This document shows, in pieces, positions 1-10,451 of a stretch of 10,501 bases of DNA. The translations under genes and the position numbers were made by a program. The stretch is from a virus, in UHGV virus genome UHGV-0105382. One strand, given 5' to 3'. The notes beneath the pieces were generated by a model that did not search any database, was not told where the DNA came from, and saw only the letters and a program-made list of their open reading frames with translations. Each line of letters opens with the position of its first letter. The first letter of the stretch is position 1.

Positions 1-10
1 ATCTTCTTTG

Positions 11-37
11 CCCTCCAATGTGAGGGAAATTTTTTTG
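11..37 (+). terminator. Possible intrinsic terminator hairpin (CCCTC / GAGGG stem, 7-nt loop, then AAATTTTTTT)
   Basis: Seen in sequence: 5-bp GC-rich inverted repeat at 11-15 and 23-27, followed by a T7 run. Short stem and window-edge position limit confidence. Confidence 0.3.
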
Positions 38-49
38 ACGGAGTGAACG

Positions 50-298
50 ATGATAAAAACTGATTACCCTGCAGAGCTTAAACAAAAAGTAATAACAGCA
101 ATTAAATGCTCTTTTATCTCATGTCGTACAGATGAAGAACGATATGTCGTTGAGTGTGCAATTGTCGAGTTTCTCACAGCGATGGAATTTACCGCTGCAG
201 AATCAATAGATGTATTAAAGCAATCAGACGGAAATGATATTGAAACGGATGATGTTATTGACCGACTAATAAAATCATTCGAAGAAGAAATAGAGTAG
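50..298 (+). CDS. Hypothetical small acidic protein (82 aa, about 20 Asp/Glu against 9 Lys/Arg)
   Basis: ORF with GGAG at 40-43 six nt before the ATG. Sits upstream of the cIII-like gene, where lambda carries ral/ea10. No family recognised. Confidence 0.6.
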   Translation: MIKTDYPAELKQKVITAIKCSFISCRTDEERYVVECAIVEFLTAMEFTAAESIDVLKQSDGNDIETDDVIDRLIKSFEEEIE

Positions 299-381
299 CC
301 GCCTGAGCGCGGCTTTACCGCATACCAATAATGCTTCACGAGAGGCATTTTCGTTATGCAATCAAATATAAGGAGTTACCC

Positions 382-516
382 ATGATGCACTTTCAGCTCG
401 CGGGTAGCGGCGTCATGTCCGCTTTCTACCCGCACGAATCTGAATTATCACGCCGAGTTAAACAATTAATCAGAGCAGCAAAGAAACAACTGGAGGCGTT
501 ATGCGCAATGAAATAG
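382..516 (+). CDS. cIII: cIII-like protein (putative FtsH inhibitor), 44 aa
   Basis: AGGAG at 371-375, ATG at 382. The translation MMHFQLAGSGVMSAFYPHESELSRRVKQLIR resembles my recollection of lambda cIII (MQYAIAGWPVAGCPSESLLERITRKLR). Position relative to the Kil-like and recombination genes matches lambda. The longer ORF from 331 has no RBS. Confidence 0.55.
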   Translation: MMHFQLAGSGVMSAFYPHESELSRRVKQLIRAAKKQLEALCAMK

Positions 517-653
517 CCATTAATCACCAGATGCTTCGTGCTGCACAAAACAAAGCAGTAATAGCCCGATTTATTGGTGATTCAAAAATGTGGCTTGAAG
601 CAAATAAAGCGATGAAATCAGCTATCAACCTTCCATGGTATCGCAGGAAATGA
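501..653 (+). CDS. kil: Kil-like small protein (putative host cell-division inhibitor), 50 aa
   Basis: ORF not in the supplied track (under 60 aa). GGAGG at 492-496, ATG at 501, 16-nt overlap with the cIII-like 3' end as in lambda. The motif AAQNKAVIARFIGDSKMWLEANKAMK resembles what I recall of lambda Kil (AIQTKFTIATFIGDEKMFREAVDAYK). Assignment rests on memory and synteny. Confidence 0.45.
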   Translation: MRNEIAINHQMLRAAQNKAVIARFIGDSKMWLEANKAMKSAINLPWYRRK

Positions 654-808
654 GTTTTACAGATAACTGGTCAGACGAAGAATTCATTCGTCAGATGAAA
701 GAATTAATCGGTAACGAAGGAGATATTCATGTCACTTGCAACCACAGTGAAGGAGAGCAAGTTACAGAGACGCATGTACACGCAGAAAGCTCTCTGGTAT
801 CGCCATAA
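650..808 (+). CDS. Hypothetical small protein (52 aa)
   Basis: ATG overlaps the Kil-like stop (ATGA), suggesting translational coupling. No independent RBS and no recognisable family. Confidence 0.3.
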   Translation: MSFTDNWSDEEFIRQMKELIGNEGDIHVTCNHSEGEQVTETHVHAESSLVSP

Positions 809-907
809 TGGCGACCGCGAAGGAATGCGGGTATGCCTTAATTTGTCCAGAGTCGAAGTATTAAACCAGCGTTATTTCCTTGGGCCATGTCCATTCTGAG
901 GTGAATT

Positions 908-1615
908 ATGGATTTGAATAAATTCGATGAGCCATTCAGCCCTGAAGATATCGAATGGCGAATACAGCAAAGCGGTAAAACACGCGATGGCAAAGTGTGG
1001 GCTATGGTGCTGGCTTATGTCACGAACCGGGCAATCATGAAACGCCTGGACGATGTTTGCGGCAAAGCAGGATGGCGCAATGAATACCGCGATATTCCCA
1101 ACAACGGCGGCGTTGAATGCGGCATATCAATCAGGATTGATTCCGAATGGGTAACCAAATGGGATGCTGCTGAAAACACGCAGGTAGAAGCCGTCAAAGG
1201 TGGTCGTTCCGGTGCAATGAAGCGCGCTGCCGTTCAGTGGGGAATCGGTCGGTATCTGTATAACCTTGAGGAAGGTTTCGCACAAACATCTCTCGATAAA
1301 AAGCAGGGGTGGCACAGGGCAAAACTGAAGGATGGAACAGGATTTTACTGGCTCCCTCCATCGCTGCCGGGCTGGGCAATGCCAGTATCAGATAACAAAC
1401 CATCACCAGAAAATACCAACCAGAAATCTCCATCGGTTGACTGCGAGCAAATCCTGAAAGACTTCAGCGATTATGCGTCAACAGAAACTGACAAGAAAAA
1501 ACTCATCGAGCGTTATCAGCGTGACTGGCAATTAATGGCTGGCAATGAGGATGCGCAGGCTAAATGCGTTCAGGTAATGAACATCAGAGTTAACGAGCTA
1601 AAACAGGCGGCATAA
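908..1615 (+). CDS. Rad52-like single-strand annealing protein (phage recombinase, Sak/Rad52 type)
   Basis: TGAGGTG RBS at 897-903. Translation carries a Rad52-type core (GWRNEY...GGVECGISIRIDSEW...KRAAVQWGIGRYLYN), comparable to the Rad52 KRSLRGFGNALGNCLY region. Stop is directly followed by the SSB start (TAAATG). Confidence 0.75.
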   Translation: MDLNKFDEPFSPEDIEWRIQQSGKTRDGKVWAMVLAYVTNRAIMKRLDDVCGKAGWRNEYRDIPNNGGVECGISIRIDSEWVTKWDAAENTQVEAVKGGRSGAMKRAAVQWGIGRYLYNLEEGFAQTSLDKKQGWHRAKLKDGTGFYWLPPSLPGWAMPVSDNKPSPENTNQKSPSVDCEQILKDFSDYASTETDKKKLIERYQRDWQLMAGNEDAQAKCVQVMNIRVNELKQAA

Positions 1616-2119
1616 ATGGCAAGCAGAGGCGTAAATAAGGTGATCATTATTGGTCGCCTTGGGCATGATCCAGAAATCAGATATTCACCATCAGGAACGG
1701 CATTTGCAAACCTTACAGTTGCTACGTCAGAACAGTGGCGTGATAAGCAAACTGGAGAGAAAAAGGAGCAGACGGAGTGGCACCGTGTGGTAATGAGCGG
1801 GAAACTGGCAGAAATTGCCAGCGAATATCTGCGAAAAGGCTCTGAGGTTTATCTTGAAGGCAAATTGCGGACAAGAAAATGGCAGGATCAAAGCGGACAG
1901 GATCGGTTCACTACCGAAATCATCGTGGGCGTTGGTGGAACTATGCAAATGATTGGTGGCAAGCAAGGAGGCAATGAACAGTCTTCACCTCAGCGAAATA
2001 ACGGTCAGCAACCTCAGCAGCAAGGGAATCACAGCGAACCACCTATGGATTTTGACGACGATATCCCCTTTGCACCAGTAACTCTCCCCTTCCCTCGTCA
2101 CGCTATTCACGCAATTTAA
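1616..2119 (+). CDS. ssb: Single-stranded DNA-binding protein (phage SSB) with a C-terminal extension past the DDDIPF tip
   Basis: N-terminal OB fold nearly as in E. coli SSB ([16 protein letters not shown]...TEWHRVV...), Gly/Gln-rich linker, conserved MDFDDDIPF motif, then 15 more residues ([15 protein letters not shown]) before the stop. Confidence 0.9.
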
Positions 2120-2127
2120 GGACTTAC

Positions 2128-2676
2128 ATGAATCACTTGATGGTTGACCTTGAAACAATGGGCAACGGGCCATACGCGCCAGTTATTTCTATTGGGGCGG
2201 TATTCTTTGACCCGAATACCGGAGAAACAGGAGAAGAGTTCTCGGTAAATATCTCGCTTGAGTCATCAATGCGATATCGGGCGCGTCCTGACGCTTCAAC
2301 GATTTTATGGTGGATGGAACAGAGTGAAGAAGCCAGAAAATCGCTAACCAGCAACACTCAGGAGCTTTCAACGGCTCTTTCATGGTTATCTGAATTCATC
2401 ATAAAGAACGCTAACCACAAATTCGTTCAGGTTTGGGGGAATGGAGCATCATTTGACTGCGTTATTCTCCGAAACAGTTATTCGCTGACAGGGCAGCCAG
2501 TTCCGTGGCAGTGGTGGAATGACCGCGACGTAAGAACAATCGTCGAGCTTGGAAAGGTAATAGGATTCGACCCTAAGCGAGATATGCCATTCAAAGGAAC
2601 TCGCCACAACGCGCTTGATGATGCCATCCACCAAGCCAAATACGTTTCAGCAATCTGGAAAAAATTAGCTCAATAA
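2128..2676 (+). CDS. DEDDh-family (DnaQ-like) 3'-5' exonuclease
   Basis: All three exonuclease motifs are visible: Exo I (MVDLETMG), Exo II (WGNGASFDCVIL) and Exo III (HNALDDAIHQ). AAGGA RBS sits just upstream of the ATG. Confidence 0.8.
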   Translation: MNHLMVDLETMGNGPYAPVISIGAVFFDPNTGETGEEFSVNISLESSMRYRARPDASTILWWMEQSEEARKSLTSNTQELSTALSWLSEFIIKNANHKFVQVWGNGASFDCVILRNSYSLTGQPVPWQWWNDRDVRTIVELGKVIGFDPKRDMPFKGTRHNALDDAIHQAKYVSAIWKKLAQ

Positions 2677-2692
2677 TCAACAGGAGAAAAAC

Positions 2693-2986
2693 ATGCCAGC
2701 GCCTCTGTATGGTGCGGATGACCCGCGCCGCTGTTCCGGCAAATCCGTATCGGAGGTGCTGGATAAATTCAGAAAAAACTACGACCTGATAATATCGCTA
2801 CCGAAGGAAACGAAAGAGGAAAAGGAATTTCGCCATTGTATATGGCTTGCAGAGAAAGAAGAACGCGAGCGAATTTACCAGACATCAATCCGACCATTCC
2901 GCAAAGCCGCATATACCCACTTCCCTGAAATTGACCCGCGTCTGCGTAATTACCGCTCACGCTATGGCGCTATCAGTAATGACTGA
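2693..2986 (+). CDS. Hypothetical protein (97 aa)
   Basis: AGGAG at 2683-2687, ATG at 2693. No recognisable motif. Basic and Glu-rich. Confidence 0.6.
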   Translation: MPAPLYGADDPRRCSGKSVSEVLDKFRKNYDLIISLPKETKEEKEFRHCIWLAEKEERERIYQTSIRPFRKAAYTHFPEIDPRLRNYRSRYGAISND

Positions 2987-2996
2987 GGAATTAACA

Positions 2997-3287
2997 ATGA
3001 AAACAATGAAGCTAAACATCGGCCTCGGCAAATACGTTATTACCGGAACCAAACACGACCTGATTCTTAGCGAAAGAGGAATTATCAAAGAAGGCGAGAA
3101 TGCAGGGAAAGAAACACTAAGCCGTATCGGTTATTACAGCAAGTTTGAGCATCTGGTTAAAGAGTTATGCAACCGTGAACTCCTGTTATCTCAGGCGCAG
3201 ACGCTACAGGATATTCAGCAGCATATCGAGACATTAGGTGTGTCACTTAGCATGGCTATTGACCAGTTCGTTGAGAGTAAATCATGA
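2997..3287 (+). CDS. Hypothetical protein (96 aa)
   Basis: GAGGA at 2985-2989, ATG at 2997 (MKTMKLNIG...). The track's longer ORF from 2847 overlaps the preceding gene in another frame and has no RBS, so the internal start is preferred. Confidence 0.6.
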
Positions 3288-3451
3288 GAGGACTTGCATA
3301 CAATCCCGGCATTCTTCCGGCAGAAATGATTATTCGCCAACGCGTAAAGCCAATGCCATCGAGAGAGGAATTGCTTAAGAGAAAGAGTTTCGGTTCTGTT
3401 AATGACAACAAATATCTGAATGCGATGTTGCGCAAAGGAGGCAACCAATGA
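3284..3451 (+). CDS. Hypothetical small basic protein (55 aa)
   Basis: Not in the supplied track (under 60 aa). ATGA overlaps at both ends (3284-3287 and 3448-3451) and it exactly fills the gap between neighbours. Translation [55 protein letters not shown]. Confidence 0.4.
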
Positions 3452-3801
3452 GCAAGATTGACTATCAGGCACTGCGTGAAAAGGCAGAGAAAGCAACGTG
3501 TGGTGTGTGGTCGCTCGAATATGGAGAGAGCCGATTTGATTGTGATGATGCGCTAATTCATCGTGACGTTGTTGGATATCTTCCCATTTGCAGAATTGAA
3601 GGAGCGCATCCTGAAAGCGGTTTCGATGAAGATTTCCAAATGGAACAGCAGGCCAATGCTGAATTCATCGCCGCAGCCAATCCGGCTACTGTGCTGGCAC
3701 TACTGGATGAAAACGAAAGACTGTGTCGCGAGCTGATAGCTCGTAATGGTGAGATTGAAGGGCTTCGGAAGTGGGCAGAAGAACGGGAGATGCAACCATG
3801 A
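3448..3801 (+). CDS. Ead/Ea22-like protein (117 aa)
   Basis: AGGAGG at 3436-3441. N-terminal module ([18 protein letters not shown] ... [24 protein letters not shown]) recurs in the next gene and matches my recollection of the Ead/Ea22-like family of lambdoid early-left regions. Confidence 0.65.
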
Positions 3802-4727
3802 TGACTTTTACCAGCGAACAATTAGCTACCTTACGTAAGATAGCGCAACAGGCAACACAGGGCGAATGGCGTGCATTCATCTCGCCGGACACTGGTACAT
3901 ATGCGGTGCATACGCCGGGGGATGAACGTTGCGGAGACATTATCAAATGGCCTGGCTTTGACGACCAGAAAAATGCAGAGAACAACGCAGAATTTATCGC
4001 AGCTTTCAACCCTAAATTAGTGCAGACACTGCTGGATGAACGGGAAAGAAACCAGCAATACATCAAATCACGCGACCAGGAGAACGAGGATATTGCGCTA
4101 ACGGTAGGGAAGCTGCGCGTTGAGCTTGAGGAGGTGAGAGCAAAACTCAATGAACAACGCGAGTATTACGAGGGAGTAATCGCGGATGGAAGGAAGCACA
4201 TAGCAGAACTGGAAAAACAATGCGCCGAATGGGAGCGAAAAGCATTAAGCAACTTTGAAGAGTGTGCTGCGATGGCTGAACGTATCGAAGAGATGCAGAC
4301 AAAATCTGCACCAGATTCGTTTGGCATCATCGGTGAAAATATTCGAACACAGGATAATCGAATAACGTCAGATCCTATGTTTTGTGTGTATCAAAAGCGC
4401 GAAATCGTTGTTGATGCTGATTATGACTATGACCGGATTGTCTGGGTTGATGAAGATGGCAATGAAGCCAATAAACTCCAAAGTCGTCGTCTCGAACTAC
4501 TTCATGAAAACTTTCGGGAGCCACCAGAAAAATGGCGGCGCGTTGCTGTGAAAGATATTGATGAATTCGTTACCTGCTGTTTCACCGAACAGGGTTGTAA
4601 AGACTACCTGGCAGCCAATGGTCACAATCTTCGCTTGCCATTTATATATGTAAAAAGCGGTTTCAGGAACGCTGAATATATCGGCATAAGAAACTGGCTT
4701 GCTGGTATTCGCATCAAAGGAGACTGA
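3798..4727 (+). CDS. Ead/Ea22-like protein, long form (309 aa) with coiled-coil middle and distinct Cys-containing C-terminal domain
   Basis: GGGAGA at 3785-3790, ATG at 3798 overlapping the previous stop (ATGATGA). N-terminal module (EQLATLRKIAQQATQGEW ... NNAEFIAAFNPKLVQTLLDERER) is paralogous to the preceding gene. The track's GTG start at 3771 is less likely. Confidence 0.7.
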   Translation: MMTFTSEQLATLRKIAQQATQGEWRAFISPDTGTYAVHTPGDERCGDIIKWPGFDDQKNAENNAEFIAAFNPKLVQTLLDERERNQQYIKSRDQENEDIALTVGKLRVELEEVRAKLNEQREYYEGVIADGRKHIAELEKQCAEWERKALSNFEECAAMAERIEEMQTKSAPDSFGIIGENIRTQDNRITSDPMFCVYQKREIVVDADYDYDRIVWVDEDGNEANKLQSRRLELLHENFREPPEKWRRVAVKDIDEFVTCCFTEQGCKDYLAANGHNLRLPFIYVKSGFRNAEYIGIRNWLAGIRIKGD

Positions 4728-4728
4728 T

Positions 4729-4938
4729 ATGGCTATTGCCGCAAGTTACACCATGCATCTCTATTGTGATTGTCGCCAGTGTACGGAAGGTGTATATCCA
4801 GTGCCAGACTTCGGTGAGTATATCGGTACGTCATGGTCTGGTTGTGCAAAAGAGGCCCGTAAAGACGGGTGGCGAATAAGCAAAGACAAAACACGTACTT
4901 TTGCGCCCGGGCATAAAGTTTTGAGGATTAACACATGA
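4729..4938 (+). CDS. Hypothetical Cys-rich small protein (69 aa, C-x-C-x2-C ... C; possible zinc ribbon)
   Basis: AAGGAGA at 4717-4723, ATG at 4729. Stop overlaps the next start (ATGA at 4935-4938). Motif HLYCDCRQC plus a later WSGC. Confidence 0.55.
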   Translation: MAIAASYTMHLYCDCRQCTEGVYPVPDFGEYIGTSWSGCAKEARKDGWRISKDKTRTFAPGHKVLRINT

Positions 4939-5708
4939 CCACTATTACCAAAGAACGTATTGAATTGTTCATTAAAAATCCGCTTGAAAACGGGCTTACT
5001 CGTGGCGAACAAATGGAACTGGCACGAATTGCACTGGCATCACTGGAACGCGAACTGATTCGCCACGAGCATGCCAAATGGTCTGACTCCACATTTGGCT
5101 GCGTTGGCCCCATTGGTCCACTGAAACACCTCTCAAAAGAGGCTCTGGAAGCCGCAGCCGAACCAGACGATCTCAGCGAGTGGGCTGATATGCATTTCCT
5201 GTTGTGGGATGCACAGCGCCGTGCTGGCATCAGCGATGCTGAAATTACCGCTGCTATGGAAGATAAATTGAAGATCAACATGGAGCGCCAGTGGCCTGAA
5301 CCAAAAGATGGTGAGCCTCGCTTGCACATTAAAGAACCCGGCAACTCTCCGGTAATTCCGGATGGTTTATCCACGGTATGCGCTGAGGCTTATCAGGTTG
5401 TAGGAGTTATGGCAGATGCGCTTGGTGTATTCGGTGATGCAGCAGTACAGAAAGTTCTGGATAACCTGTCACAGCAAAAACTTGTTCACAGAGATGTGCT
5501 GCCGTTCTCGCTTCCGGTAACTCCGGATGGTTGGATAAGCTGTAGTGATCGAATGCCGAACGACGCGCAGTGGTGCGTAGTGAACACAGAATACGGGTAT
5601 TACGTGCAATGCTGGTCTGAAGGTCAAGGGTGGCTTGGTGATGATATCAGCATCCCTAAATGCGATGTAATCAATTGGATGCCTCTACCAGAACCGCCGC
5701 AGGGGTGA
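4935..5708 (+). CDS. Two-domain prophage protein: N-terminal DUF550-type (dATP/dGTP pyrophosphohydrolase-like) domain and C-terminal DUF551 domain
   Basis: GAGGA at 4923-4927. The C-terminus (GWISCSDRMP...WCVV...DVINWMPLPEPPQG) matches the DUF551 signature as I recall it (W..[SC].DRLP ... W ... HWMPLPEPP). The N-terminal half (EWADMHFLLWDAQRRAGISDAEITAAMEDKLKINMERQWPEP) resembles the MazG-like pyrophosphohydrolase domain often fused to DUF551. Family names are from memory. Confidence 0.7.
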   Translation: MTTITKERIELFIKNPLENGLTRGEQMELARIALASLERELIRHEHAKWSDSTFGCVGPIGPLKHLSKEALEAAAEPDDLSEWADMHFLLWDAQRRAGISDAEITAAMEDKLKINMERQWPEPKDGEPRLHIKEPGNSPVIPDGLSTVCAEAYQVVGVMADALGVFGDAAVQKVLDNLSQQKLVHRDVLPFSLPVTPDGWISCSDRMPNDAQWCVVNTEYGYYVQCWSEGQGWLGDDISIPKCDVINWMPLPEPPQG

Positions 5709-5774
5709 AATGATGCTTGGCCTGAAGTATTTTATGTAATTGGTATTGCTATATTTTTATCTGGGGATAAACGA

Positions 5775-6017
5775 ATGTTCTCTCTGATTCAACGTGGTCA
5801 GATATACACCGATAGCGCTGGCTATCCAGTAAAAATCATTCGTAGTACTGATCACTCAGTATTCTTCAAGAGGATGGATGGCTATCCTGGAAGAGTGTGC
5901 ATCAGAAAATTCAATAATTTATTCGAACACATTGATCACAGAGAATATCACCAGATCCTGGCTGAAACAGAACAGGAGAACCATCTGAAAAAATTACGTG
6001 CTATGCAAAGGAGATAA
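5775..6017 (+). CDS. Hypothetical small protein (80 aa), possibly DUF4222-like
   Basis: GGGGA 7 nt upstream of the ATG. The pattern IQRGQIY.D..GYPVKII...DHSVFFKRMDGYPGRVCIRKF resembles small prophage proteins I recall under DUF4222; the family call is low confidence. Confidence 0.55.
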   Translation: MFSLIQRGQIYTDSAGYPVKIIRSTDHSVFFKRMDGYPGRVCIRKFNNLFEHIDHREYHQILAETEQENHLKKLRAMQRR

Positions 6018-6097
6018 ACCGGTAAAGGTGTTCGCGATAAAGGTGAATATCGGCAATGAATAACAATCCTCGAACTCGCGGGGATTTCTTTTATCTG

Positions 6098-6122
6098 AAC
6101 TCGCTACGGCGAGTTTTGTTTT
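6098..6122 (+). terminator. Putative intrinsic terminator (7-bp stem AACTCGC / GCGAGTT, loop TACG, then TTGTTTT)
   Basis: Seen in sequence: perfect 7-bp inverted repeat followed by a U-rich tract, about 80 nt after the 5775..6017 stop. Confidence 0.4.
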
Positions 6123-6135
6123 ATGGAGATGATAA

Positions 6136-6303
6136 ATGCACTTCCGAGTCACAGGTGAATGGAATGGAGAGCCATTCGACAGGGTTATCGAAGCAGAGGA
6201 CATCAACGACTGCTATAACCACTGGATGATATGGGCGCAGATAGCGCATGCAGACGTAACCAATATTCGAATTGAAGAACTGAAAGAACACCAAGCCGCC
6301 TGA
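6136..6303 (+). CDS. Hypothetical small protein (55 aa)
   Basis: Not in the supplied track (under 60 aa). GGAG at 6125-6128 seven nt before the ATG. Translation MHFRVTGEWNGEPFDRVIEAEDINDCYNHWMIWAQIAHADVTNIRIEELKEHQAA. Stop codon lies in the loop of the next terminator. Confidence 0.45.
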   Translation: MHFRVTGEWNGEPFDRVIEAEDINDCYNHWMIWAQIAHADVTNIRIEELKEHQAA

Positions 6304-6316
6304 TGGCGGTTTTTTC
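6293..6316 (+). terminator. Putative intrinsic terminator (stem GCCGCC / GGCGG(T), loop TGAT, then TTTTTT)
   Basis: Seen in sequence: GC-rich 5-6 bp stem followed by T6, directly upstream of the cII-box/xis region. Confidence 0.55.
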
Positions 6317-6352
6317 TTGCGTGTAATTGCGGAGACTTTGCGATGTACTTAA
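6317..6352 (+). promoter_or_regulatory. pI-like cII-dependent promoter (TTGC-N6-TTGC box overlapping the xis start)
   Basis: TTGC at 6317-6320 and 6327-6330 with a 6-nt spacer, the direct-repeat architecture of lambda cII sites. The surrounding sequence (TTGCGTGTAATTGCGGAGACTTTGCGATGTAC) matches what I recall of the lambda pI/xis region. Confidence 0.5.
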
Positions 6353-6561
6353 CACTTCAGGAGTGGAACGCACGCCAGCGGCGCCCAAGAAGCCTTGAAA
6401 CAGTTCGTCGATGGGTACGCGAGTGCAGGATATTCCCTCCTCCGGTTAAGGATGGAAGAGAGTATCTGTTCCACGAATCAGCGGTAAAGGTTGACTTAAA
6501 TCGACCAGTAACAGGTAGCCTTTTGAAGAGGATCAGAAATGGGAAGAAGGCGAAGTCATGA
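6343..6561 (+). CDS. xis: Excisionase Xis (lambda-type, 72 aa)
   Basis: Translation MYLTLQEWNARQRRPRSLETVRRWVRECRIFPPPVKDGREYLFHESAVKVDLNRPVTG... is essentially the lambda Xis sequence as I recall it. GGAG at 6331-6334. 3' end overlaps the int start as in lambda. Confidence 0.95.
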   Translation: MYLTLQEWNARQRRPRSLETVRRWVRECRIFPPPVKDGREYLFHESAVKVDLNRPVTGSLLKRIRNGKKAKS

Positions 6562-7612
6562 GCGCCGGGATTTACCTCCTAACCTTTATATAAGAAACAA
6601 TGGATATTACTGCTACAGGGACCCAAGGACGGGTAAAGAGTTTGGATTAGGCCGAGACAGGAGGATAGCAATCACTGAAGCTATACAGGCCAACATTGAG
6701 TTACTCTCAGACAGCGGACGCAAATCACTGATAGACAGAATTAAAGGCGGTGACGCAATCACTCTTCATGTGTGGCTTGACCGATATGAAAGAATCCTCA
6801 CCGAAAGGGGGATCAGGCCGAAAACTCTACTCGACTACGCCAGCAAAATCAGGGCAATCCGAAGAAAATTGCCGGACAAACCGCTCACTGACATATCAAC
6901 GAAAGAAGTGGCAGCAATGCTAAACACCTACGTAGCAGAAGGTAAAGCAGCTTCCGCAAAATTAATCAGGTCAACCCTTGTTGACGTTTTTCGTGAAGCA
7001 ATAGCCGAGGGGCATGTGGCAACGAATCCGGTAACAGCAACCCGTACAGCAAAGTCAGAAGTAAGGCGCTCAAGGCTGACAGCTAATGAGTATGTCGAGA
7101 TTTACCATGCAGCCGAACCTCTCCCTATCTGGCTAAGGCTGGCGATGGATTTGGCCGTCGTTACAGGGCAGAGAGTCGGCGATTTGTGCAGAATGAAATG
7201 GTCAGACATAAACGACAACCATCTTCACATTGAACAGAGTAAAACAGGGGCTAAACTCGCCATTCCGCTAATGCTAACGATTGACGCGCTCAATATCTCA
7301 TTGGCTGATACACTACAGAAATGCAGGGATGCCAGCAGCAGTGAAACTATAATCGCATCAAAGCATCACGATCCGCTTTCCCCGAAAACAGTATCAAAGT
7401 ATTTTACAAAGGCGAGAAATGCATCTGGACTCTCATTTGATGGAAACCCGCCAACATTCCATGAACTGCGTAGCCTGTCAGCGAGGCTATACCGGAACCA
7501 GATTGGCGATAAGTTTGCTCAACGTCTTCTCGGGCATAAATCAGATTCAATGGCGGCGCGGTATAGGGACAGCCGTGGACGGGAATGGGACAAAATTGAA
7601 ATCGACAAATGA
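6539..7612 (+). CDS. int: Tyrosine integrase, lambda Int family (357 aa)
   Basis: N-terminal arm-binding domain matches lambda Int (MGRRRSHERRDLPPNLYIRNNGYYCYRDPRTGKEFGLGRDRRIAITEAIQANIEL). Catalytic residues are placed as in lambda (VVTGQRVGDL, HELRSLSARLY, LLGHKSDSMAARYRD, C-terminus REWDKIEIDK). The central core-binding region differs from lambda. Confidence 0.95.
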   Translation: MGRRRSHERRDLPPNLYIRNNGYYCYRDPRTGKEFGLGRDRRIAITEAIQANIELLSDSGRKSLIDRIKGGDAITLHVWLDRYERILTERGIRPKTLLDYASKIRAIRRKLPDKPLTDISTKEVAAMLNTYVAEGKAASAKLIRSTLVDVFREAIAEGHVATNPVTATRTAKSEVRRSRLTANEYVEIYHAAEPLPIWLRLAMDLAVVTGQRVGDLCRMKWSDINDNHLHIEQSKTGAKLAIPLMLTIDALNISLADTLQKCRDASSSETIIASKHHDPLSPKTVSKYFTKARNASGLSFDGNPPTFHELRSLSARLYRNQIGDKFAQRLLGHKSDSMAARYRDSRGREWDKIEIDK

Positions 7613-7706
7613 TTTTATTTTGACTAATAATGACCTGCTTACATTAATTCATTGATAATAAAAGAGATTTCAAATATACAACTTATTCACCTTAAGTGCA
7701 CCGACC
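7613..7706. other. attL-like region: tandem arm-type Int sites, IHF consensus, then the phage/host junction (exact core not determinable)
   Basis: The reverse complement of 7613-7640 reads AGGTCATTATTAGTCAAAATAAAA, close to lambda P'-arm sites (GGTCACTATCAGTCAAAATAAAAT as I recall). The reverse complement of 7644-7656 is TATCAATGAATTA, matching the IHF consensus WATCAANNNNTTR at the position of lambda H'. Confidence 0.6.
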
Positions 7707-10451
7707 GTGAATTTAACCCTGACCCGAAGACTCTGGATGGGCTTTGCCCTGATGGCGCTGTTAACCCTGACCAGTACCCTGGTGGGATGGTACAACCTGC
7801 GCTTTATCAGCCAGGTGGAAAAAGACAACACTCAGGCATTGATTCCTACCATGAATATGGCGCGCCAGTTGAGCGAAGCCAGCGCCTGGGAACTTTTCGC
7901 CGCGCAGAACCTGACCAGTGCCGATAACGAAAAGATGTGGCAGGCGCAGGGGCGAATGCTCACCGCACAAAGCCTGAAGATTAATGCGTTGCTGCAAGCA
8001 TTACGGGAACAAGGTTTTGATACCACCGCTATTGAACATCAGGAGCAGGAGATCTCCCGTTCGTTACGTCAGCAAGGGGAACTGGTGGGACAGCGTTTGC
8101 AACTGCGCCAGCAACAACAGCGACTCAGTCAGCAGATAGTCGCCGCCGCCGATGAAATCGCACGCCTGGCGCAAGGTCAGGCGAATAATGCGGCAACTTC
8201 CGCCGGAGCGACCCAGGCCGGGATTTACGATTTGATCGAACAACATCAGCGTCAGGCCGCAGAAAGTGCACTCGATCGGCTGATTGATATCGATCTTGAG
8301 TATGTTAACCAGATGAATGAACTGCGCCTTAGCGCCCTGCGGGTGCAGCAAATGGTGATGAATCTGGGGTTGGAACAGATCCAGAAAAATGCGCCAACGC
8401 TGGAAAAGCAGCTCAATAATGCGGTGAAAATTCTGCAACGTCGGCAAATACGCATTGAAGATCCGGGAGTTCGTGCTCAGGTCGCAACAACGTTAACTTC
8501 CGTTAGCCAATATAGCGATTTGCTGGCGCTGTATCAGCAGGACAGTGAAATCAGCAATCGCCTGCAAACTCTCGCCCAAAATAACATCGCCCAGTTCGCG
8601 CAGTTTAGTAGCGAAGTCAGTCAGTTGGTCGACACCATTGAGCTGCGTAATCAGCACGGACTGGCGCATCTGGAAAAAGCCAGTGCACGCGGGCAATACA
8701 GCCTGTTATTGCTGGGGATGGTTTCACTTTGCGCACTGATTCTGATCCTCTGGCGCGTGGTTTATCGCTCAGTCACGCGTCCACTTGCCGAACAAACGCA
8801 GGCGCTGCAACGGCTGCTGGACGGTGATATCGACTCCCCTTTTCCGGAAACCGCTGGCGTGCGGGAGCTGGATACCATCGGGCGGCTGATGGATGCGTTT
8901 CGCAGCAGTGTTCATGCACTGAATCGCCACCGCGAACAGCTGGCGGCGCAGGTCAAAGCGCGTACAGCTGAATTGCAGGAGCTGGTGATAGAACACCGAC
9001 AGGCACGGGCGGAAGCAGAAAAAGCCAGCCAGGCAAAATCGGCGTTTCTGGCGGCGATGAGCCATGAGATCCGCACACCGCTGTACGGTATTCTTGGCAC
9101 CGCGCAACTGCTGGCAGATAACCCCGCACTTAATGCCCAGCGTGATGATTTGCGGGCAATTACCGACTCTGGTGAATCGTTGCTGACCATCCTCAACGAT
9201 ATTCTCGATTATTCGGCTATCGAAGCAGGCGGCAAGAATGTTTCGGTCAGCGATGAACCCTTTGAACCGCGCCCGCTGCTGGAAAGTACCCTGCAATTAA
9301 TGAGCGGAAGGGTGAAAGGTCGCCCGATTCGCCTGGCAACAGAAATTGCCGACGATGTACCGACTGCGTTAATGGGCGATCCGCGGCGTATTCGTCAGGT
9401 CATTACCAACCTGTTGAGCAACGCCCTGCGTTTTACTGACGAAGGACAGATCGTTTTACGTAGCCGCACTGATGGCGAGCAATGGCTGGTCGAAGTGGAA
9501 GACAGCGGCTGCGGTATTGATCCCGCGAAACTGGCTGAAATCTTCCAGCCATTTGTTCAGGTTAGCGGCAAACGCGGCGGCACCGGGCTGGGGCTGACCA
9601 TCAGTAGCCGTCTGGCCCAGGCGATGGGCGGCGAACTGAGCGCCACCAGCACGCCGGAAGTTGGAAGCTGTTTTTGTTTACGCTTGCCGTTACGTGTTGC
9701 CACTGCACCCGTGCCAAAAACAGTCAATCAGGCGGTGCATCTGGACGGTTTACGTTTGCTGTTAATTGAAGATAACCCGCTAACCCAGCGAATTACCGTT
9801 GAGATGCTGAACAACAGTGGGGCGCAGGTCGTTGCGGTAGGAAATGCCGCGCACGCAATAGAGACGTTGCAAAATAGCGAACCGTTTGCTGCCGCACTGG
9901 TGGATTTTGATCTGCCCGATATCGACGGCATTACGCTTGCCCGGCAACTGGCACAGCAATATCCGTCGCTGGTTTTGATTGGCTTTAGCGCTCATGTCAT
10001 CGACGAAACGTTGCGCCAGCGTACCAGTTCATTATTTCGCGGGATTATCCCTAAACCGGTGCCGCGTGAAGTGCTCGGTCAGTTACTGGCGCACTATCTC
10101 CAACTGCAAGTCAATAACGATCAACCGCTGGATGTATCGCAACTCAATGAAGATGCTCAGTTGATGGGGACGGAGAAGATCCACGAATGGCTGGCATTAT
10201 TTAAACAACATGCCCTGCCGCTTCTCGATGACATCGGCATCGCCCGCTCCAGCCAGAACAGCGAAAAAATAAAGCGTGCCGCACATCAGCTAAAAAGCAG
10301 TTGCTCGAGTCTGGGAATGCGTAGCGCCAGCCAGCTATGCGCACAACTGGAGCAGCAGCCATTATCTGCCCCCCTTCCACACGAAGAAATTACACGCAGT
10401 GTTGCCGCTCTGGAAGCATGGTTGAATAAGAAAGACCTGAACGCGATTTGA
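7707..10451 (+). CDS. torS: TMAO-responsive hybrid sensor histidine kinase TorS (914 aa from the GTG at 7707; 904 aa if started at the ATG at 7737)
   Basis: Translation matches E. coli TorS as I recall it ([22 protein letters not shown]...). Two transmembrane segments flank a periplasmic domain, followed by an H-box ([11 protein letters not shown], His codon 9063-9065), G-boxes (DSGCGI, GGTGLGL), a receiver domain (LLIEDNP; Asp codon 9903-9905 in [10 protein letters not shown]) and a C-terminal HPt (AAHQLKSS, His codon 10284-10286). Counting from the internal ATG these residues are His443, Asp723 and His850, the phosphorelay positions as I recall them for TorS. Confidence 0.95.

Follow-up and report, generated by a model that had tools for sequence, protein, structure and literature searches.

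We analyzed the window, which is the whole 10,501-nucleotide stretch of the virus genome UHGV-0105382 and holds approximately 7.7 kb of prophage without attR. Near the host junction, the plus strand carries xis at 6343-6561, encoding a 72-residue excisionase (Pfam Exc PF07825, E=3.9e-41), and int at 6539-7612, encoding a 357-residue HK022-type integrase. The 3' end of xis overlaps the start of int by 23 bp, so that an Exc protein is encoded immediately upstream of int and overlaps it, as in the lambda excisionase family. Xis had been predicted to be essentially identical to that of lambda, and 71 of its 72 residues are indeed shared with lambda Xis (G59 in lambda, S59 in the window), while all 72 are shared with HK022 Xis. 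Just 5' of the xis start, a TTGC-N6-TTGC motif on the plus strand (6317-6330) is a candidate cII-activated PI (int) promoter element. By analogy with lambda, we take this motif to be the PI/cII site; in mEp235 and HK629, the annotation places a "lambda cII" feature beneath this match, and window positions 6298-6347 are 100% identical to lambda. The early-left operon genes upstream are intact open reading frames with strong Pfam matches, and the remaining early-left operon is P22-like (Abc2, Rad52-like, and SSB) and not HK022-like.

The Int protein showed 96.1% amino acid identity with HK022 Int and 75% with lambda Int in pairwise comparisons, and it is 100% identical to the RefSeq protein WP_001609775.1 of E. 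coli strain 165. Pfam matches were obtained for PF09003 (Arm-DNA-bind_1) at residues 1-68 (E=1.3e-28), PF02899 (SAM-like) at 81-158, and PF00589 (Phage_integrase) at 179-346. Over its full length, the protein matched structures of lambda Int (1Z1B and 5J0N) with E values of about 1e-176, and residues 1-62 matched that of the lambda Int N domain (1KJK). The catalytic residues R212, K235, H308, R311, H333, and Y342 are all kept. An N-terminal arm-binding domain, a SAM-like and a catalytic domain, and arm-type sites with an IHF-like site beside int mark the protein as a lambda-family heterobivalent tyrosine integrase. It differs from HK022 Int by 14 substitutions (G58D, N59S, R60G, E62K, A71G, A78V, T85R, S88T, A117T, S137A, A187E, T245M, Q261K, and E264D), 10 of which fall in residues 58-137; in the linker, the window has DSGRK where HK022 has GNRRE.

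The differences from lambda were distributed unevenly along Int. Residues 1-55, a part of the arm-binding domain encoded at 6539-6703 (plus strand), are identical at 55 of 55 positions to both lambda and HK022 Int, which agrees with the original prediction of a lambda-like N terminus of about 55 residues. The first mismatch with lambda is at residue 56, and all 90 differences lie in the remaining 302 residues (0/55 versus 90/302, Fisher p=3e-8). Codons 56-169 (6704-7045, plus strand) encode a hypervariable linker (residues 56-75) and the core-binding domain, and codons 170-357 (7046-7609, plus strand) encode the catalytic domain. Identities to lambda and HK022 were 30% and 75% for the linker, 69.8% and 94.3% for the core-binding domain (residues 64-169), and 72.6% and 97.9% for the catalytic domain (residues 170-356). 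The central part of Int had been predicted to differ from lambda, and the peptide quoted for it is present and unlike lambda, but the divergence is equally dense through the catalytic domain to the C terminus.

At the nucleotide level, the last scattered lambda mismatch is at 6667 and dense mismatches begin at 6704. In 50-nt windows, identity to lambda drops at this point from 92-100% to 54-76% and remains at 54-84% up to the int stop codon. Codons 1-55 are 97% identical to lambda, with 4 synonymous codon changes, and xis has synonymous changes in 7 of 72 codons; codons 76-355 are 64-68% identical, with 125 synonymous and 75 nonsynonymous codon changes. Across int codons 44-56, identity to lambda falls from approximately 97% to approximately 65%, which marks a recombination joint with lambda-like DNA, lying within codons 44-55 (6668-6703, plus strand). 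Because of this joint, lambda and the window have in common xis, the first 55 codons of int, and the arm sites. Over a further 240 bp 5' of xis, the window is still lambda-like (90-100% identity) but bears no relation to HK022, which is typical lambdoid mosaicism.

Downstream of int, three arm-type Int sites were found by sequence match on the minus strand at 7607-7637, which we take to be P'3 (7607-7616, overlapping the int stop codon), P'2 (7617-7626), and P'1 (7627-7637) by the names used for lambda. In reverse complement, the block reads CAGGTCATTAT / TAGTCAAAAT / AAAATCATTT. It shares 28 of 31 bases with lambda, as expected from the claim of lambda-like arm sites, and 30 of 31 with HK022. 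A putative H' IHF site follows on the minus strand at 7645-7657, where the reverse complement TATCAATGAATTA fits WATCAANNNNTTR and lines up with ATTGATAA in lambda and HK022. Over the spacer and H', the P' arm is only 46% identical to lambda and has 4 base changes compared with HK022.

The attL core lies on the minus strand at 7679-7699 and reads GCACTTA-AGGTGAA-TAAGTTG, as expected for an HK022 core. It consists of the core-type Int site C' (TAAGTTG, 7679-7685), which is the same in the window, HK022, and lambda, the 7-bp overlap O (AGGTGAA, 7686-7692), and the host-derived core-type site B (7693-7699). The overlap, where crossover would occur, is identical to that of HK022 attP and of the empty attB; the P' side of the core matches HK022 attP, and the torS side matches the empty E. 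coli attB. The lambda overlap TTTATAC, which would have spoken against a changed target, was sought at the junction and was absent: AGGTGAA agrees with it at only 1 of 7 aligned bases, and only C' is shared. The B site, compared with the empty attB, is GCACTTA in place of the canonical GCACTTT. The T/A variant is a host polymorphism that keeps the CTT triplet, with exact 70-nt matches at unoccupied sites. A phage origin of GCACTTA was rejected since the variant is present in unoccupied sites, and an adaptation of the Int allele to it was rejected since the identical Int adjoins a canonical B site in strain 165.

The phage/host junction is 73 bp past the int stop codon and 14 bp upstream of the annotated GTG start of torS, and the HK022 junction likewise lies 73 bp after its int stop codon (PMC6814406). 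The torS gene, which encodes the host sensor kinase, occupies 7707-10451 on the plus strand, with its annotated GTG start at 7707 and an ATG start at 7737; the ATG start is experimentally supported (Carey et al. 2019, PMC6814406). RefSeq annotation of matching genomes confirmed the earlier statement that the flanking host gene is torS and not the lambda attB locus. In other genomes, the empty attB sits between torT and torS, the integration site of HK022. The int-attL-torS junction was present in 194 of 5,426 complete E. coli genomes, and the others showed an empty site; an occupancy of about 5% was given for the torS-torT site by Carey et al. 2019 (PMC6814406). A prophage at this site replaces the torS promoter and alters bet hedging in TMAO respiration (Carey et al. 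2019), and therefore the host strain likely shows lysogen-type torCAD regulation. A scan of the P' arm for a sigma-70 promoter for torS gave two weak consensus hits (7602-7631 and 7630-7659), no more than in shuffled sequence, which agrees with the remark that a -10 or -35 cannot be clearly made out there (Carey et al. 2019, PMC6814406).

We also examined the residues that determine target specificity. The positions that Dorgai and coworkers reportedly named in 1995 are 99, 282, 283, 287, and 319; in the window these are D, P, K, K, and R, all in the HK022 state, and all five differ from lambda. Of these, position 99 is in the core-binding domain, and the other four are in the catalytic domain. 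According to a passage of PMC6007267 citing Yagil/Dorgai 1995, chimera and mutant work mapped the difference in specificity between lambda and HK022 to five key residues. N99 and "H329" are named as specificity residues in PMC10863862, and position 329 in the window is R, the HK022 state. The Int of Salmonella phage Si3 KFo-2019 (MK972696) has the same three-domain architecture, lambda-like P' arm-type sites, and 96% identity in residues 1-55, but it has only 66% identity overall, has yet another version of linker 56-75, and is in the lambda state at positions 282, 283, 287, and 319. Relative to lambda, Si3 Int has diverged further than the Int of the window, and still its overlap and C' are those of lambda; bulk divergence is therefore not what retargets these enzymes. 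The near-identity of Int, the specificity residues, the core, and the integration site all match HK022 and, as judged from the DNA, place the window in the HK022 specificity class. The region is thus almost certainly one end, carrying xis, int, and attL, of a lambdoid prophage with an HK022 site-specific recombination module, integrated between torS and torT of E. coli at HK022 attB.

The original prediction explained the changed target by an exchange of the core-recognition segment of Int, with the arm and Xis/IHF architecture kept; in its strict form, that segment alone would have been swapped, and the catalytic part of Int would also have stayed lambda-like. The shared arm domain, Xis, and arm sites, the different target, and the sharp DNA joint hold up. 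In addition, the most diverged stretch (residues 56-75) directly follows the lambda-identical residues, and D99 is in the core-binding domain. However, the diverged unit extends from codon 56 to the stop codon and includes the P' spacer, H', and the overlap. An even spread of differences across Int had been named as evidence against the exchange, and from residue 56 on the spread is indeed even, the core-binding and catalytic domains having diverged equally from lambda (Fisher p=0.36), whereas residues 1-55 have no differences. Lambda DNA identity is already low right up to the int stop codon, four of the five reported specificity positions are in the catalytic domain, and the P' spacer and H' are less than half identical to lambda. 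The Si3 core-binding domain is even more diverged (57.5% identical to lambda), yet that phage keeps the lambda overlap. We therefore consider an exchange restricted to the core-binding segment very unlikely. It is even more improbable that no module was exchanged and that lambda-type and HK022-type int diverged vertically, with extreme purifying selection keeping the 5' end of int and xis alike. The arm-binding domain is certainly constrained, with conserved arm sites to recognize and Xis to contact, and even the distant Si3 Int is nearly unchanged in this part. But selection on the protein does not shield synonymous sites, and synonymous changes were found in 4 of 55 codons in int 1-55 and 7 of 72 in xis compared with 125 of 280 in int 76-355. 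Vertical divergence also does not fit the abrupt change of identity within 6668-6704 or the lambda-like DNA 240 bp beyond xis, where HK022 is unrelated.

A further alternative is a defective prophage whose recombination module is decaying and has lost its function in excision. In strain GMF054, this site holds just a truncated int fragment of 219 bp beside an IS911. In the window, both int and xis are intact open reading frames with all catalytic residues present, and the early-left operon upstream is likewise intact with strong Pfam matches; moreover, the identical Int occurs in strain 165, in a prophage of 38.7 kb that looks complete and whose attL and attR are clean. Decay of the module is therefore unlikely. 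A broader idea builds on the HK022-type module joined to lambda-like DNA: the joint at int codons 44-56 might be a recurrent lambdoid exchange point, at which a regulatory cassette (PI, xis, the arm-binding domain, and matching arm sites) is shuffled onto targeting cassettes (the linker, core-binding and catalytic domains, and the core), and linker 56-75 might tune the coupling between arm and core. We regard this as speculative and rather improbable. If the linker does tune coupling, the window allele (DSGRK) could differ from HK022 Int in efficiency or directionality.

The sequence itself shows the identities, domain architecture, catalytic residues, att anatomy, and insertion site; how the module would bind its proteins, recombine, and be directed is taken from published work on lambda and HK022. 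The N-terminal domain of Int would bind the arm-type sites P'1-P'3 (7607-7637), while the core-binding and catalytic domains would clamp the core at C' (7679-7685) and B (7693-7699), with strand exchange over the overlap AGGTGAA (7686-7692). At H' (7645-7657), IHF would bend the DNA, and Xis would steer the reaction toward excision by way of the P arm of attR, outside the window. Everything downstream of the joint belongs to the HK022 lineage and would carry the target specificity of HK022. The other prophage end should adjoin torT and, in window orientation, read AACCTTT-TTCACCT-AAAGGATGAC before continuing into a lambda-like P arm (P2, X sites, H1, and P1). An attR as expected was found in strain 165, which has the same Int, and in Stx1a_11KH263, both used as stand-ins for the window prophage.

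The lambda/HK022 pair has been a textbook case since 1989 and is the classical natural experiment on retargeting with the arm/Xis/IHF scaffold kept. Studies with chimeras and point mutants have analyzed it in detail, and HK022 Int is already in use for engineering. The combination of a lambda-like arm-binding part with a different target is this already known case (Yagil 1989, Dorgai 1995, Carey 2019). The window adds one more natural HK022-type Int allele, identical to an existing RefSeq protein, and matters little as a discovery. Its practical use is in annotation, where the region is to be labeled as HK022-type int, xis, and attL.

Finally, we compared the region with its relatives. The xis-int-attP DNA of HK022 (X51962 and AF069308 = NC_002166) is 95.8% identical to the window, and C', the overlap, the torS-torT attB, and the stop-to-junction distance are all the same; HK022 differs upstream of xis, where the window is lambda-like. 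Lambda (NC_001416) shares the three-domain architecture, catalytic residues, and C' with the window but has the overlap TTTATAC, another B site, and the lambda attB instead of AGGTGAA and torS-torT. Among the torS-torT Stx1a phages of O26:H11 (LC744179-84) and H19J (AJ236875), LC744179, LC744180, and H19J showed 98.2-98.6% DNA identity over xis-int-attL, and the other four LC7441xx records showed 95.1%. The Int of Stx1a_11KH263 is 99.2% identical (3 residues differ), and this phage has the same attL, including the TTAAG variant of the B site, with the polymorphic base beside O staying with the B arm; only patches of window 1-6100 match it. Among the complete E. coli genomes of the collection, none covers at least 80% of window 1-7700, and the torS-torT prophages are, by comparison of their sequences, mosaic outside int-xis. 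Strain 165, with the identical Int allele, matches the window at 499-3000 and 5513-9200 with 99% identity. Its prophage is P22-like and is flanked by the direct repeat TTCACCTAAAG, with a lambda-like P1-H1-P2 arm in attR.

On the plus strand, the window carried a series of lambdoid early-left genes closing with xis (6343-6561; Pfam Exc, PF07825) and then int (6539-7612; Pfam lambda-type architecture). A noncoding gap of 94 bp separated int from torS, annotated on the same strand from a GTG at 7707. The Int and Xis proteins were aligned with those of lambda (NC_001416) and HK022 (AF069308). Residues 1-55 of Int were the same in all three, the first mismatch with lambda falling at residue 56, and Xis was identical to HK022 at 72 of 72 residues and to lambda at 71 of 72. 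The block of three P' arm-type sites overlapping the int stop codon (7607-7637; reverse complement CAGGTCATTAT, TAGTCAAAAT, and AAAATCATTT) agreed with lambda P'1-P'3 in 28 of its 31 bases and with the HK022 sites in 30. These results confirmed the lambda-like Int N terminus of about 55 residues, the lambda-like arm sites after int, and the essentially lambda-identical Xis of the original prediction; the features described there are real and far beyond chance.

Over its full length, Int showed 75% identity to lambda Int, 96.1% to HK022 Int (14 substitutions), 99.2% to the Stx1a_11KH263 protein, and 100% to RefSeq WP_001609775.1 of E. coli strain 165. A megablast search of 6300-7720 against phage records gave 95.8% identity with int-xis-attP of HK022, 98.2 to 98.6% with phage H19J and the E. 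coli Stx1a-converting phages LC744179 and LC744180, and about 77% with phages of the lambda type. Pfam assigned an arm-binding domain (Arm-DNA-bind_1, 1-68), a SAM-like core-binding domain (81-158), and a Phage_integrase catalytic domain (179-346). The lambda Int structures 1Z1B, 1Z1G, and 5J0N matched over the full length (E about 1e-176), and the catalytic residues Y342, R212, K235, H308, R311, and H333 were all kept. Residues 58-137 held 10 of the 14 substitutions against HK022 Int (residues 56-137 correspond to 6704-6950). Four were bunched at 58-62 (GNRRE to DSGRK), and DNA identity to HK022 fell to 78% across 6698-6747. Within this integrase family, variability is highest in the linker that joins the arm-binding domain to the core-binding domain.

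The 90 residue differences from lambda, none of them within residues 1-55, were spread over the rest of the protein. Identity was 30% in the linker (56-75), 69.8% in the core-binding domain (64-169), and 72.6% in the catalytic domain (170-356). The central part of Int differed from lambda as predicted, but the claim that the differences are concentrated in the core-binding domain failed, as their density there did not differ significantly from that in the catalytic domain (Fisher P = 0.36; P = 0.78 without the linker). DNA identity to lambda was 90 to 98% over 150 bp from 6101, 92 to 100% over 6251-6697, and 54 to 84% across the remainder of int, with the switch located at 6667-6704 (int codons 44-56). 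Synonymous changes against lambda affected 4 of the 55 int codons at 1-55 and 7 of the 72 xis codons, compared with 125 of the 280 int codons at 76-355. Stronger protein-level constraint on the N terminus could keep its residues unchanged; because the jump also occurs at silent sites, codons 44-56 point to a recombination (mosaic) joint and not merely to such constraint. The lambda-like stretch included a lambda orf55-like open reading frame (ORF; 6136-6303) and a terminator-like hairpin (6293-6312), whereas HK022 was unrelated to both the window and lambda across 6101-6312. This 55-amino-acid ORF and hairpin were 90 to 100% identical to the DNA that precedes xis in lambda (orf NP_597778). A second mosaic boundary, relative to other torS-torT prophages, lay between 6059 and 6135.

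Beyond int, the lambda-like parts of the P' arm were the arm-site block and C' only. The spacer and H' region was 46% identical to lambda. A lambda core was not found at the junction: C' alone was shared, at 7 of 7 bases, and the overlap, AGGTGAA, was unrelated to lambda. This overlap is that of HK022 at the torT-torS site, in agreement with the predicted torS flank and non-lambda target. Retargeting by exchange of the core-recognition segment thus held in one respect, in that the arm, Xis, and IHF scaffold was kept while the target changed, but the diverged unit was not the core-binding segment. This unit comprised all of int from codon 56 on, the catalytic domain included, and ran into the att core.

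In a comparison of lambda and HK022, Yagil et al. reportedly found in 1989 that arm-type specificity is shared, Xis is near-identical, and core specificity differs. The specificity determinants were reportedly mapped in 1995, when Dorgai, Yagil and Weisberg are said to have identified five residues (N99D, S282P, G283K, R287K, and E319R), of which one only belongs to the core-binding domain. At each of these positions, and at 329 as well, the window Int had the residue of HK022. Chimera and mutant work on exactly this pair is described as assigning the difference in specificity to five residues (PMC6007267), and one paper names position 329 instead (PMC10863862). The Int of Salmonella phage Si3 KFo-2019 (MK972696, 701-1900) shared 96% of its N-terminal 55 residues with lambda and HK022 and elsewhere was further from lambda than the window Int (57.5% in the core-binding and 67.2% in the catalytic domain). 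Yet the overlap and C' of Si3 attP were still those of lambda (CTTTTTTATACTAAGTTG), and Int positions 282, 283, 287, and 319 were in the lambda state, thereby indicating that bulk divergence does not equal retargeting. In the deposited Si3 record, the int start at locus 920 would remove the arm-binding domain; the ORF aligns from locus 701.

The attL junction read GCACTTA-AGGTGAA-TAAGTTG on the minus strand (7699-7679, the usual literature orientation). Its P' side agreed with the HK022 attP core ATCCTTT-AGGTGAA-TAAGTTG, and its torS side agreed with GCACTTT-AGGTGAA-AAAGGTT, the empty E. coli site between torT and torS. The sole B-site difference was at 7693, where A (GCACTTA, minus strand) replaced the canonical T beside the overlap. 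A 70-nucleotide empty attB with this variant had exact matches in unoccupied genomes, and in strain 165 the identical Int allele adjoined a canonical B site; the T-to-A change is a common host polymorphism. Stx1a_11KH263 carried the variant base in attL and the canonical base in attR, indicating that the polymorphic base travels with the B arm, outside the exchanged 7-bp overlap. Strain 165, having the identical Int, was taken as a surrogate for the other prophage end. Its prophage was a 38.7-kb P22-like lambdoid element with the direct repeat TTCACCTAAAG at both bounds, and its attR P arm was almost identical to P1-H1-P2 of lambda (CAGGTCACTAATAC...CATAGTGACTG).

By homology, P'1-P'3 would be bound by the Int N-domain, and C' and B by the core-binding and catalytic domains. 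Cleavage at the AGGTGAA edges would be performed by Y342 with the other five catalytic residues. IHF would bend the DNA at H', for which the IHF-consensus motif TATCAATGAATTA (7645-7657, minus strand) is a candidate by sequence match, and Xis acting on the attR P arm would drive excision. The cII-dependent PI element expected here is presumably the TTGC-N6-TTGC motif at 6317-6330, within a stretch 100% identical to lambda.

The window system belongs to a thoroughly characterised system and was already known, its exact protein being in RefSeq; the torS-torT site, its occupancy, and the physiological effect were described in 2019 (Carey et al., PMC6814406). The phage/host junction lay 73 bp past the int stop codon, a distance the same paper states for HK022 too. 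The torS GTG at 7707 (ORF call and RefSeq) stands 7 bp past the B site; lacZ fusions are reported there to show that the downstream ATG alone, 7737 in the window, is used. The HK022 P' arm is described as holding an outward promoter that takes the place of the native torS promoters and increases torS expression, altering torCAD bet hedging (PMC6814406). A consensus scan of 7602-7659 gave two weak sigma-70-like matches (TCGACA-18-AATAAT and ATGACC-18-GATAAT), no more than shuffled sequence gives, in accord with the statement of Carey et al. that a clear -10 or -35 is not visible. Both sit where, by their account, the phage-borne transcription start driving torS was mapped.

Upstream, on the plus strand, Pfam identified a Rad52/Rad22-family annealase (908-1615), an Rv2179c-like 3'-5' exonuclease (2128-2676), P22 Abc2 anti-RecBCD (2693-2986), a dATP/dGTP pyrophosphohydrolase with DUF551 (4935-5708), DUF4222 (5775-6017), and two Ead/Ea22-like proteins upstream of xis. 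The ORF at 1616-2119 aligned with ssb as annotated by RefSeq in strain 165, and the cIII and kil homologues annotated in that strain corresponded to 385-516 and 501-653. The recombination module at 908-2986 (annealase, ssb-like ORF, exonuclease, and Abc2) differs from lambda Red, and its genes occur in strain 165 inside the P22-like podovirus prophage.

The int-attL-torS junction was found in 194 of 5,426 complete E. coli genomes (3.6%), and the remainder matched from the core onwards only, corresponding to an empty site. Carey et al. (PMC6814406) give an occupancy of about 5%, with all such prophages carrying HK022-like integrases that read towards torS. In E. coli GMF054 (NZ_CM183924, 18657-20053), an IS911 insertion cut int to its last 219 bp at the same attL, and just a P22-like prophage remnant was left between torT and torS. 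This is a case of torS-torT prophage decay in which the P' arm and the torS junction are intact.
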